Positions 3,729 to 58,734 of a stretch of 64,000 nt of DNA are shown here, in pieces. Source of the DNA: Octopus sinensis. Taxonomy: Eukaryota. Under the pieces are notes generated by a model. The model did not search any database. It had not been told where the DNA came from and saw only the letters and a list, made by a program, of their open reading frames with translations. Position 1 is the first letter of the stretch. Each line of letters starts with the position of its first letter. The translations under genes were made by a program, and so were the position numbers. The DNA lies in the NCBI RefSeq assembly GCF_006345805.1, contig NC_043005.1, positions 53,010,001 through 53,074,000 on the forward strand. Reading direction: 5' to 3'.

Positions 3729-3774
3729 GATACCTGACGAAGACTGGAGGGTATATCAGCTGAAACGTTGTGTT
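3729..3774 (+). ncRNA. Minimal type I hammerhead (Penelope pLTR-like fragment, ~3720-3855)
   Basis: GAUAC-CUGACGA-AG(A)CUGG-agggtata-UCAGCU-GAAAC-GU-U-GUGUU. Confidence 0.6.
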
Positions 3775-21458: not shown

Positions 21459-21720
21459 CAATGTTAGCACGCACATATTTATATATACATTTACGCACAC
21501 ACACACACGCACATACACGCTCACACACATCCACACTCCCACACTTTCACAGCCAGTTTTATTTAATTTTTAATATCCCACATTTCCTTTTGAAAAGAAA
21601 CAAAAAAACCATAACTACAAACTAACTGCGTACATTTACGAAGTTATTAGGTATACACAGATTTATGAACACACACAAACACACAAACACAAACACACAC
21701 ACACATATATATATACACAC

Positions 21721-22536
21721 ATACACTCAAACTCACTTATATATTCATATTGATATACCATTACATATTTGTACAAATTCAACCTCTTTGCTTTCTCCCT
21801 ATGCAAGCCAAGTATTATACATATTTATAAGGAGAGTATACCAAGTGTTTACTTCTTTACTCTCATATATGTAATTATAGCGAAGAAACAGATAGAGACA
21901 AATTTTAACTGAGTCATAGTCTCTACACAGACACATTAACGCGCGCACCTGCACACAGACACACTCACAAATCACAGAAACTTATATATTAATATATGTA
22001 TGCAATATGTATGCACACGCGCATATGTATATCTATATCTATATCTATATCTATATCTATATATATATACATACATACATATACATATATATATATATAT
22101 ATATATATTTATATGTATATATATATACATACACGCATATATATGTATATGTATAAATTAAAACGGAATATATAATTAAATATACGTATATATACAACAC
22201 ACATATATATACACACATACACTCAAACTCACTTATATATTCATATTGATATACCATTACATATTTGTACAAATTCAACCTCTTTGCTTTCTCCCTATGC
22301 AAGCCAAGTATTATACATATTTATAAGGAGAGTATACCAAGTGTTTACTTCTTTACTCTCATATATGTAATTATAGCGAAGAAACAGATAGAGACAAATT
22401 TTAACTGAGTCATAGTCTCTACACAGACACATTAACGCGCGCACCTGCACACAGACACACTCACAAATCACAGAAACTTATATATTAATATATGTATGCA
22501 ATATGTATGCACACGCGCATATGTATATCTATATCT

Positions 22537-22567
<31 letters not shown>

Positions 22568-22595
22568 TACATACATACATATACATATATATATA

Positions 22596-22626
<31 letters not shown>

Positions 22627-22710
22627 CATACACGCATATATATGTATATGTATAAATTAAAACGGAATATATAATTAAATATACGTATATATACACACAC
22701 ACATATATAT
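21721..22710. repeat. Tandem duplication, period 496 bp
   Basis: atacactcaaactcacttat... at 21721 and 22217; unique parts essentially identical. Confidence 0.9.
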
Positions 22711-23512
22711 ACACGTATACATACTTATACATATGTATATGCGTACGCGCACATACATATATATGTACATATATGCATATTCATATACATATATTATAAT
22801 ATATATATATATAATATATATATATATTATATATATATATATAATATATATATATATATATTATATATATATATATATACATACATACACATATCTATAT
22901 TCAAATTTATATAATATTTTTGAATATATATTTGAATTAATATATACATAAATATGTGTGCACGTGTGTGTGTGTATAGGTGCGAGAGTGAGTGTGTATG
23001 AGTGCATGTGTATGTGTGCGTACGTCTGTTTGTGCGCATATGTGCGGGTGTACATGTGTGTGTGTTTGTGTGTGCGCGTGTGTGAAGAATAAGCAATAAG
23101 GTATGAATTTAATTGGTAACAATTGCTGCCCCAATAATTATCTGGTGTCACAGAGAGGCCACCAAAGAAATTATCAAAAGCAGATTATTCATGACGATAT
23201 ACTATAAACCAAACAAAGAAATTTAAATTATGGGAACGCCAGTTTAAGGCCAACAAAGAATTTAGGTGCAATAAACGTTTGTTTTCTGTTGTCGCGAAAG
23301 AAATGAGGTCGCGAACCAAACGTTCTTTATTTGCTTAATTGAAACCGTTACAACGTCTCACTTGCAGCATCGTATTTTTTATCATATTCTGGCTTAAAAA
23401 AAATAAAGCAAGCAAACAAAAAGCAAATGACTTGTTGTTATTGTCCATTTCCTCACCGCATATGTCACTGCATAGCATATCAATGACACTAATACCAAAT
23501 ATGTTCTTTTAC

Positions 23513-43980: not shown

Positions 43981-45273
43981 CGAGGGACGTTCAATAAGTA
44001 ATGCCTCTGACCCACTTGCAGTTGTTTGATCTAGCTGAAAGTTTGCATGTGCAATCATTTATATCTTTATAGAGTAAGTGGCAAATTACAGCTCTGAACT
44101 AATTGTGGTTTCTGATTTACAGGTGTTTGAACCGAGTTAAGTGTGAAATGGAGCCTGTTGAGTGTCGAGCAGTGATCCGGTTTTTGTATTTGAAAGGACG
44201 CACACAACGGGATACTTTTGATGAAATGAAAGTAACTTATGGTGATGATGCCCCATCATATGACCTTGTAAAACGCTGGCATCGTGAATTCAAACATGGT
44301 CGGAACTCTGTGGAAACAGTTCCCAGATCTGGTCGCCCCCCTTCTGCCATTGATGAGGCATCTGTCCGTCAAGTTGAGGCTGCCATTTTGGAAGATCGAC
44401 GCATAATTATTCGCCAAATAGCCCATGAGGTCAAGATTAGTACCGGATCTGTGGAAACTATCATTCATGACCATTTGCATATGCAAAAGGTGTCTGCCAG
44501 ATGGATTCCCAGGTTGCTCACGCCTTTCCAGAAGCAAGAACGCGTCGAGTGCTCGAGGGTGAATTTGGAGATGTGCCAAGAAGATGAGTCAAAATTTTTC
44601 AAAAGACTGATTACACAGGATGAAACCTGGGTCCATCACGATGATCCAGAGACCAAAGCCCAGTCAATGCAGTGGAAGCACCGTGACTCACCCCCTCCAA
44701 AGAAGGCAAGGGTGCAGCCCTCCGCTGGCAAGGTCATGCTCACAGTCTTCTGGGACCAGAACGGAGTAGTGATGACAGATTTCCTAGCAAAGGGTACCAC
44801 AATTGCAGGAGCCTATTATGCTTCACTTTTGAGGAAATTAAGAGAAGTTATCAAAATCAACAGGCGGGGCAAGATCAGCAAAGGCATCCTCCTCCTGCAG
44901 GACAACGCTCCGGTCCACAACTCGCTTGTCGCCAGATCAGAAGCACAGGCGTATGGCTATGAACTCCTCCCCATTCCCCCCTACTTTCCTGACCTTGCAC
45001 CCTCTGATTTTCACCTCTTCCCAATCATGAAGTTGTTTTTGAAAGGAAAGCGTTTCCCAGATGATGCAGCCTTGATTTCTGAAGTCACGTTGAGGTTGGA
45101 GGACCAAGCTGGGTTCTTCTACAAAAACGGTCTCCAGAGCCGCATCAAACGATGGGAGAAATACGTAACTCTGGGTGGTTCCTATGTAGAAAAAGACTAA
45201 TAACTGTGCCAAGTTTCGTTGCTCTACTGCTATGGGAAGTGGGTCAGGGGCATTACTTATTGAACTCCCCTCG
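43981..45273 (+). mobile_element. Full-length mariner (Tc1/mariner, DD34D) DNA transposon, 1293 bp
   Basis: 37-bp TIRs at 43981-44017 (cgagggacgttcaataagtaatgcctctgacccactt) and 45237-45273, 34/37 identical. Flanked by TA within a (TA)n tract. Encloses one long transposase ORF. Confidence 0.97.
44148..45200 (+). CDS. Mariner transposase, 350 aa, uninterrupted ORF
   Basis: First ATG at 44148 (MEPVECRAV...). N-terminal HTH region, WIPRLL linker (WVPHEL-like), ITQDETW, LLQDNAPVH and PPYFPDLAPSDFHLF motifs. 34 residues between the 2nd and 3rd catalytic Asp. Confidence 0.95.
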   Translation: MEPVECRAVIRFLYLKGRTQRDTFDEMKVTYGDDAPSYDLVKRWHREFKHGRNSVETVPRSGRPPSAIDEASVRQVEAAILEDRRIIIRQIAHEVKISTGSVETIIHDHLHMQKVSARWIPRLLTPFQKQERVECSRVNLEMCQEDESKFFKRLITQDETWVHHDDPETKAQSMQWKHRDSPPPKKARVQPSAGKVMLTVFWDQNGVVMTDFLAKGTTIAGAYYASLLRKLREVIKINRRGKISKGILLLQDNAPVHNSLVARSEAQAYGYELLPIPPYFPDLAPSDFHLFPIMKLFLKGKRFPDDAALISEVTLRLEDQAGFFYKNGLQSRIKRWEKYVTLGGSYVEKD

Positions 45274-45790: not shown

Positions 45791-45884
<94 letters not shown>

Positions 45885-46172
45885 GCGACGACTACAACAA
45901 TAACAACCGGAACAAGAAAAAGAACAATAACAGCAACAATAATAACATTTTATCTTTTACTTGTCTCTCAGTCATTAGACTATGGCCATGCTGGGGCTCC
46001 GCTTTAATGAATTTTAATCAAATGAAACGATGAAAGTGCTTTTTCGTAAAAAAATCTTAATTCTATCACTCACTTTCGCCGAACCGCTAGGTTATGGGGA
46101 CGGGGACACACCAACACCGATTGTCAAGCTGACACACATGCAAATATACACGCACAAAAGCTTCCCCACCAA

Positions 46173-46728: not shown

Positions 46729-46822
<94 letters not shown>

Positions 46823-47107
46823 GCGACGACTACAACAATAACAACCGGAACAAGAAAAAGAACAATAACAGCAACAATAATAACATTTTATCTTTTACTT
46901 GTCTCTCAGTCATTAGACTATGGCCATGCTGGGGCTCCGCTTTAATGAATTTTAATCAAATGAAACGATGAAAGTGCTTTTTCGTAAAAAAAATCTTAAT
47001 TCTATCACTCACTTCGCCGAACCGCTAGGTTATGGGGACGGGGACACACCAACACCGATTGTCAAGCTGACACACATGCAAATATACACGCACAAAAGCT
47101 TCCCCAC

Positions 47108-53439: not shown

Positions 53440-54069
53440 TCAAATTTTGGCACAAGGCCAGCGGTTTCAGGGATGAAGTACGTCCATACTGCCCCCCCCC
53501 CCCGCCAACCACCACCAGTACTGTACTTACTGGTACCTATTTTATCGACTCAGAAAAGATGAAAGGTAAAGTCGGCCTCGGCGGAATTTGAACTGAGAAC
53601 GTAAAAAATAGACTAAATGCCTCTAAGCATTTCGCCCGGCGTGCTAACGATTCTTATTTCTTTACTGCCCACAACGGGCTACACACAGAAGGGACAAACA
53701 AGGACAGACAAAGGGATTAGGCCGATTACATCGACCCCAGTGCGTAACTGGTACATAATTTATCGACCCCGAAAGGATGAAAGGATGAAAGTGGACCTCG
53801 GCGGAATTTGAACTCAGAACGTAGCGGCAGACGAAATACCTATTTCTTTACTACCCACAAGAGGCTAAACACAGAGGGGACAAACAAGAACAGACAAACG
53901 AATTAAGTCGATTACATCAACCCCAGTGCGTAACTGGTACTTAATTTATCGACTCCGAAAGGATGAAAGGCAAAGTGGACCTCGGTGGAATTTGAACTCA
54001 GAACGTAGCGGCAGACGAAATACCGCTAAGCATTTCGCCCGGCGTGCTAACGTTTCTGCCAGCTGGCCG
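53440..54069 (-). mobile_element. SINE family A cluster (older copy + young dimer)
   Basis: Three family-A cores in tandem. Confidence 0.88.
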
Positions 54070-58127: not shown

Positions 58128-58446
<319 letters not shown>

Positions 58447-58511
58447 TATAGAGAAATATATATATTCATACATTATATCTGTAAAATTAATATGTGACAA
58501 TTATTCGGCCA

Positions 58512-58567
58512 GATAACTGAAGAGGTGGCGGCGTGGGTTTCCGTCCCACGAAACTCGGAGTTTTATC
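58512..58567 (+). ncRNA. Type I hammerhead ribozyme with canonical core on a long rod stem (58476-58607)
   Basis: Stem I GAUAA/UUAUC; CUGAAGA; stem II GUGG(C)GGCG...CGUC-CCAC; GAAA; stem III ACUC-G-GAGU; triplet GUU (58562). Stem I extends ~35 bp. Confidence 0.82.
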
Positions 58568-58681
58568 ATGGCTACCGAATAATTGTAACGTATTAATTTT
58601 ACAGATAAATTCCTCTATTTACATAATATCGAGGTCTCTTTCATTCTTTTGGTGTCTTACCATTTCTATCAATATTTATAC

Positions 58682-58734
<53 letters not shown>

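Follow-up and report, generated by a model that had tools for sequence, protein, structure and literature searches.

The hammerhead motif found in a stretch of 64,000 nt from Octopus sinensis (contig NC_043005.1, positions 53,010,001 to 53,074,000, hereafter called the window) very probably belongs to a decayed, 5'-truncated insertion of a Penelope-like element (PLE) of the Hydra clade. The hammerhead would be the standard 3'-end motif of this element, the long rod beside it would come from a reversed segment of that end, probably formed on insertion, and the monomer is predicted not to cleave itself. The window copy is a member of a repeat family with many copies in the octopus genome. It consists of two head-to-head arms, only one of which carries a tail, it is flanked by a target duplication, its stem II bears a deletion private to this copy, and it is decaying neutrally.

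Structure of the window copy

A full hammerhead descriptor matched a single locus in the window (Table 1) and gave no match in 40 dinucleotide shuffles. The core features of a type I hammerhead (CUGANGA, GAAA, A15.1-U16.1 and an NUH site) are present. The original prediction had proposed a hammerhead lying inside a long fold-back, with a fully canonical core and a GUU site; the letters it named were found where it placed them, and every core base of the window copy is canonical. Stems I and II are able to form, with the open end at stem I, and stem I is part of the minimum free energy (MFE) fold. A search of the locus against Rfam gave no hammerhead match, neither at the gathering score nor at E<=10. 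The sole Rfam match over the rod, to the miRNA-precursor model MIR4371, was sub-threshold (30 bits vs 110) and was rejected as a generic hairpin match. A CTGAAGA at 58348 failed the full descriptor. CUGANGA motifs at 3734 (+) and 12482 (-), located in apparent ends of other repeat families, presumably other Penelope ends, failed it as well.

Table 1. Features of the PLE insertion (positions in the window)
Feature	Position	Strand	Details
Type I hammerhead motif	58507..58572	+	stem I 58507-58516 / 58563-58572 (GATAA 58512-58516 with TTATC 58563-58567; CCA 58509-58511 with TGG 58569-58571), bulged A58568; core CTGAAGA 58517-58523 and GAAA 58550-58553
Predicted cleavage	after 58562	+	GUU site
Stem II	58524..58549	+	5-nt deletion private to this copy; A>G at 58525
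Stem III, palindromic (ACUC-G-GAGU), of dimer type	58553..58561	+	ACTC-G-GAGT as read from the window sequence; type from monomer pair probability and dimer energy
Rod 5' strand: inverted, 5'-truncated PLE 3'-end arm	58476..58508	-	33 nt, ends at the 'short' end
Rod 3' strand: normal pLTR sequence as far as the 'short' end	58575..58607	+	reverse complement of 58476-58508
Sense arm, reaching the 'long' end: 3' pLTR (5'-truncated) from a Hydra-clade PLE	58507..58674	+	family identity
One-sided PLE tail, between the two preferred 3' ends	58608..58674	+	~67 nt; end clustering
Likely target-site duplication, left copy	58462..58478	.	TA-rich DNA; last 3 nt common to the arm end
Likely target-site duplication, right copy	58672..58688	.	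17 nt, 1 mismatch to the left copy; runs into (TA)n

The rod contains 31 Watson-Crick pairs, one G-U pair and one G-A mismatch, and 39 pairs span the core when stem I is added to it. Its fold has a z-score of -8.9, and none of 200 shuffles was equally stable. The near-perfect rod of about 35 bp described beforehand is real as a long duplex, of 33 bp, but is not supported as part of the ribozyme, being the inverted arm of the insertion. This arm has the family majority sequence except for a 2-nt variant that is also found in the sense arm, and the two mismatched positions of the rod both come from changes in the 3' arm that have no counterpart in the other arm. A GG at 58507-58508 is common to both arms and forms a 2-nt microhomology at their junction. 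The hammerhead of the window copy has its stem I extended into the rod because the inverted arm is so short. The inner 11-mer of the target duplication occurs 5 times within one mismatch on both strands of the window. Folding of the tail gave one weak hairpin (-3.0 kcal/mol, 0 double changes), and no twin hairpin was found at the ends. Comparison of the stretch with four contig sets mostly returned other copies of the family; one contig covers 58404-58503 with a single difference, and none of the contigs listed from the four sets runs across the stem II deletion.

Several other repeats were observed in the window. A separate repeat of ~208 nt (58243-58450), with imperfect terminal inverted repeats and adjoining TA, is MITE-like; a search gave 1,270 candidates, other copies are 80-88% identical, and it may be of the Tigger/pogo type. 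A 365-codon open frame at 44103-45197 (+) resembles a mariner transposase by eye, and is accompanied by CAG/CAA repeat blocks that are present twice, at 45793-45947 and at 46731-46885. A 496-nt unit is present in two copies of 97% identity at 21701-22714, either as a recent tandem duplication or as an assembly artefact. Tandem copies (~185 nt) of a SINE-like repeat, which we assume to be a common octopus SINE, are found at 1157-1519 and 53655-54024. No host exon was evident among the long ORFs of the window, a survey that short exons would escape.

The parent element and its young subfamily

The genome searched (2.72 Gb) contains 1,227 exact matches to a 26-mer of the hammerhead core (control, 0) and 2,284 to a CUGA-type 17-mer (control, 1). 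Among the 40 matches scored of 1,496 candidates of the DNA search, the best mostly cover the hammerhead and the sequence downstream, without the 5' strand of the rod, and the window's sense arm is up to about 91% identical to them. Following one copy (L022) downstream led to near-full-length elements. In two of these (L051, L054) the hammerhead end comes after an ORF for a reverse transcriptase (RT) and endonuclease and a 3' UTR; in three others (L052, L053, L055) it stands before the ORF, as a partial tandem. The hammerhead-bearing pLTR is in partial tandem or inverted arrangement in L051, L054, L055 and L127, and inverted at 19 of 27 loci of the set described below.

The ORFs of this old subfamily are broken. 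They are 81-84% identical to those of a younger sister subfamily, found by protein search, of which three members (L127-L129, 97-99% identical in DNA to each other) have open frames of 717 codons and intact ORFs of 708 aa counted from Met (e.g. L127:1964-4114(-)). These ORFs contain the RT motifs QFDIVDFY, MGSYDG and YKDD, and a C-terminal IIY...YVG domain. The Hydra clade is characterised by RWK, DKT, CxCx5C, CxxC and CxH around E and N, and no CCHH (PMC8557442). L127 has RMRWK, DKTK, CxCx5C, CxxC..E and LN...CxH; the cysteine motifs of the young protein read CSCRNKELC, CGLCDME and LNTRTELFGSCPH, and inspection by eye of the young ORF found no Cys between IIY and YVG (no CCHH). TA repeats follow 20 of 31 long ends, indicating a (TA)n target, and flank the window copy likewise.

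A search of the ORF pieces and intact ORFs against Pfam gave no match and one against PDB nothing significant, so the clade call rests on these motifs, on a by-eye likeness to Hydra-1_Obim and on an Atlas lead (PF26215 in 27-94% of members; GIY-YIG in 48% in one cluster). On these sequence features, the near-full-length relatives are EN+ PLEs of the Hydra clade. Repeat libraries such as Repbase, or the supplements of the octopus repeat annotation PMC13282606, may already contain this family; in the main text of the latter, as far as it was available, the words 'hammerhead', 'ribozyme' and 'Hydra' occur 0 times. By-eye comparison suggests that the window locus belongs to a Hydra-clade family distinct from Hydra-1_Obim.

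In the young subfamily the core reads CCGAAGA (U4C), with 2,930 exact 17-mer matches against the 2,284 of the CUGA form. Among the matches listed, 77 young arms have a core that can be read, and every one of them carries C4. The young hammerhead also has U at 11.1 (C11.1U) and keeps the palindromic stem III, of which the loop base alone is changed. Median divergence amounts to 1.4% in the young subfamily (37 arms), and to 2.8% and 4.2% in the two main CUGA haplotypes. Judged by its sequences, it is a recently amplified subfamily of the Hydra clade. The U4C variant has a precedent in a viroid, where, according to the available part of PMC3088659, it considerably lowers activity in vitro yet permits infectivity. 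The subfamilies were also seen to differ in their 3' UTR, which is ~850 nt long and GT/AT microsatellite-like in the old one (L051 3040-3700) and ~290 nt in the young one (L127); an intermediate (L120) combines the long UTR with the CCGA core.

Insertion geometry, predicted folds and traces of activity

A locus set unbiased with respect to the rod was obtained from the first 30 of the 1,227 core 26-mer matches, of which three overlapping ones were dropped. Head-to-head arms are present at 19 of these 27 distinct loci, and in 18 of the 19 one long and one short 3' end are combined, as they are in 64 of 69 head-to-head pairs overall. The 3' ends fall into two groups, around reference positions 100-109 and 164-173, ~67 nt apart. 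In 29 loci including the window copy (the tight-pattern loci), the inverted arm is joined <=20 nt from the core; 27 of the 29 have rods of at least 27 pairs, and nine others equal or exceed the window rod in length and retain an intact core. Where the arms meet differs from locus to locus, and stem I of the hammerhead frequently supplies a short homology for the join. Among young copies (L235, L243, L209, L188), many of the head-to-head junctions coincide with a short palindrome directly 5' of stem I, a feature that might promote joining by fold-back.

Of 213 subfamily sites compared between arms of the same locus, 188 carry the same letter; the fraction for shuffled partners is 0.57 (maximum 0.70 in 2,000). 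This fits a single template; gene conversion could alternatively explain the subfamily letters common to both arms. The median divergence between arms is 6.5% (55 pairs), and the 2/33 of the window copy fits this value. From the arm geometry, the agreeing subfamily letters, the 2-nt variant and the 17-nt target duplication, we infer that both arms arose in one insertion event. An inverted pLTR with a one-sided tail is a described product of PLE insertion (available parts of PMC3846280 and PMC8557442), and the tail, reported as 30-40 bp, has been traced to two internal RT start sites (PMC11167929, in the part available).

A route for this event can be proposed by combining the arm geometry with the biochemistry of PAc, a PLE of another clade (PMC11167929, available part). 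The PLE endonuclease would nick both strands of a TA-rich target, and RT would start at two internal sites ~67 nt apart on one uncleaved RNA, so that one cDNA is long and the other short. Synthesis of each would stop early, and the two would be joined head to head through the 2-nt microhomology adjoining hammerhead stem I. In the master element, the hammerhead probably has weak activity, exerted either by dimers within tandem transcripts or with the help of the element's protein. Transcription of the locus, if it occurs, would expose the 33-bp duplex to ADAR as a passive substrate, as happens with many inverted repeats.

The locus had been singled out as the best candidate for an active ribozyme. 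The window copy is instead an old one, with a dimer-type stem III, and the nine tight-pattern loci mentioned above combine a rod at least as long with an intact core. Secondary structures were predicted with ViennaRNA, which leaves out Mg2+, tertiary contacts and protein. In the family, stem II has ~13 bp with two mismatches; after the deletion, that of the window copy is reduced to GUGG/CCAC plus one extra G after A9, and such an extra 5' base is of the type typical of PLE hammerheads. A 24-mer across the deletion occurs once genome-wide at <=1 mismatch, so the allele is private, and stem II deletions of at least 3 nt were found in 2 of 123 core-spanning copies. The hammerhead-compatible 4-bp stem II is predicted with p about 0.6, and a competing hairpin that occupies G12 with p about 0.4. 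Since ACUC-G-GAGU is unable to close a 1-nt loop, stem III must be either a 3-bp stem in the monomer (+2.1 kcal/mol) or a dimer duplex (-9.7 kcal/mol), and its predicted pair probability as a monomer is <=0.03, with <=0.01 given for the window copy. The constrained active fold lies 5.6 kcal/mol above the MFE, and the predicted share of the monomer in the active fold is <0.1%; the same holds for five further copies, four of them old and intact and one young. These predictions agree with the available text of PMC4209133, in which a minimal metazoan PLE hammerhead gave no cleavage as a monomer and weak cleavage as a dimer, and of PMC11167929, in which the PAc hammerhead cleaves only with protein and insertion does not need cleavage. 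By the predicted folds, the window copy is not a special candidate for an active ribozyme.

We consider a locally active ribozyme unlikely, in which stem I would be held together by the rod, a canonical short stem II would have been regained through the deletion and a host transcript would be cleaved after 58562. Its canonical core, the probability of the compatible stem II and the uniqueness of the deletion to this copy speak for it, and slow cleavage is possible because a stem II of 4 bp that is still valid happens to survive the deletion, and stem I is locked by the rod. Against it stand the near absence of stem III pairing, the predicted mispairing of C3 and U4 with that stem's strand, the energetic cost of the active fold, the lack of a second family hammerhead in the window for a cis dimer and the uncompensated state of both rod mismatches. 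In addition, U17 is a slower cleavage site than C17; a literature search for GUU cleavage rates found nothing relevant. The bulges in stem I had also been proposed to make a tertiary contact with loop II, an idea that loses its footing because only the bulge at 58568 is native, the second being created by the inversion junction. The base of the native bulge switches from A to U between subfamilies, and loop II reads GUUU/AUUU in the family and UGGGUUUC in the window copy. Tertiary-stabilised hammerheads use the 3' A of loop II (PMC2632901, available part); the contact of this type, in which the 3' A of loop 2 pairs with a 5' U of loop 1 and an extrahelical pyrimidine takes part, is absent, there being no matching stem I loop and loop II ending in U or C.

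Conservation among copies points to inheritance of the motif. Every core base is kept in 87 of 123 core-spanning copies, and U is found at the cleavage site in 119 of 123. A first pass suggested that the core is better conserved than the flank (98.1% vs 95%), an artefact of choosing copies by their core letters: in the 49 of 123 copies not so chosen, 521/538 core and 788/817 flank positions are conserved (Fisher p=0.76) and the difference is gone. The family alignment thus bears out that core letters are common to paralogues, but the core is not better kept than its flanks, and its sharing reflects descent from master copies and not selection on inserted copies. In a covariation alignment of 15 distinct, closely related rows, 95% of cells were paired against 36-53% when the structure was slid, and the score was not above that of shuffles (431/500).

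Still less probable than local cleavage is that the rod is a selected dsRNA regulator, maintained because it serves the host as a substrate of ADAR or Dicer. A near-perfect duplex of 33 bp would suit ADAR if transcribed, as had been suggested and as established knowledge supports; in the available text of PMC5625713, hyper-editing in octopus is very high, long duplexes are many, and Penelope is heavily edited in a lizard. Fold-backs are, however, the usual insertion product in this PLE family, as the 19 of 27 loci illustrate, and the arms diverge at a neutral rate. The A-to-G mismatches looked for as a mark of editing gave no excess among copies, where A>G and T>C changes number 39 and 42 (both 1.34%). 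The retro-copied RNAs thus bear no sign of editing; the count reflects these RNAs only and is silent on host transcripts.

Traces of cleavage were sought in the 5' ends of the arms. None of 49 old arms starts within 3 nt of the cut, and 1 of 37 starts at the cut in a further arm set. In a set of 91 arms partly chosen by junction pattern, 8 start within 3 nt of the cut, which stem I homology (a GATAA microhomology) explains equally well. Ninety-eight young arms were obtained from the first 100 of 1,461 matches listed; six of them were called at 60-64: four owe this call to indels in the U run, and the other two go back to one insertion, duplicated in tandem, that has a 4-nt microhomology. There is thus one independent event, and no pile-up, at the cut among these 98 listed arms, and most of those truncated nearby start on the 5' side of stem I. 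A non-LTR retrozyme or other non-autonomous unit cycling via circular RNA is the least probable reading of all, even if the hammerhead is of type I with a palindromic stem III, most copies are short and without ORF, and retrozymes have been proposed to derive from PLE pLTRs (bioRxiv 10.64898/2026.07.22.740005, available part), as the window has no tandem array, direct tandems occur at 2 of 27 loci (L098, L106), 5' ends are scattered and longer copies continue into the PLE ORF.

Relation to known systems

As one of thousands of decayed stubs, the window locus itself matters little, but it illustrates that PLE insertion can make a hammerhead appear to sit on a purpose-built rod. The role of PLE hammerheads could usefully be tested on this family, in which U4C became fixed while the element was expanding. 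Because this role is described as unclear (PMC8557442, available part), old CUGA and young CCGA ends together with an intact ORF constitute a usable test system. We put forward, as a tentative idea that is itself rather doubtful, that the family represents a natural experiment on the purpose of the hammerhead: with U4C, cleavage might have been tuned down or dropped without harm to retrotransposition, or rescued by an element protein, and head-to-head insertions may feed ADAR hyper-editing.

Compared with the Hydra clade (Craig et al. 2021, PMC8557442; e.g. Hydra-1_Obim, Hydra-2_Amil), the octopus elements have in common the protein motifs, the (TA)n targets and the hammerhead at the 3' end. 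File S2 of PMC8557442 contains Hydra hammerheads with a similar layout: in that of Hydra-1_oBim the core reads ctgaagag, loop III is a single nucleotide and the cleavage site has U, and the actc-g-gagt stem III of the octopus family is identical to that of Hydra-2_aMil, being also listed for Penelope-16_HM. The protein start and the hammerhead stems, compared by eye, differ from those of Hydra-1_Obim and suggest a separate family. The octopus family further differs from Hydra-clade elements by a longer stem II (~13 bp), a tail of ~67 nt, abundant pLTRs and a youngest subfamily with U4C; it thereby adds to the clade a recently amplified, ORF-intact element whose tail is long and whose hammerhead carries U4C.

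With the inverted, 5'-truncated pLTRs of EN+ PLEs, as described in the available parts of PMC3846280 and PMC8557442, the window copy shares head-to-head arms, a tail on one arm, a microhomology junction, a target duplication and an AT-rich target. The one-sided tail of the octopus family is roughly twice as long as the 30-40 bp reported.

The full-length hammerheads of Schistosoma and viroids (PMC2632901, available part) have the catalytic core and the three-way junction in common with the window copy, which lacks their loop II 3' A and matching stem I loop and has a helix III predicted to be unstable as a monomer. The resemblance to metazoan PLE hammerheads, as far as the available text of PMC4209133 describes them, is closer: both are of type I, with a longer-than-usual helix II, an extra base between 9 and 10.1 and a small palindromic helix III, and both occur mostly as truncated, dispersed single copies. 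The window copy differs from them in that its helix II was shortened by a private deletion.
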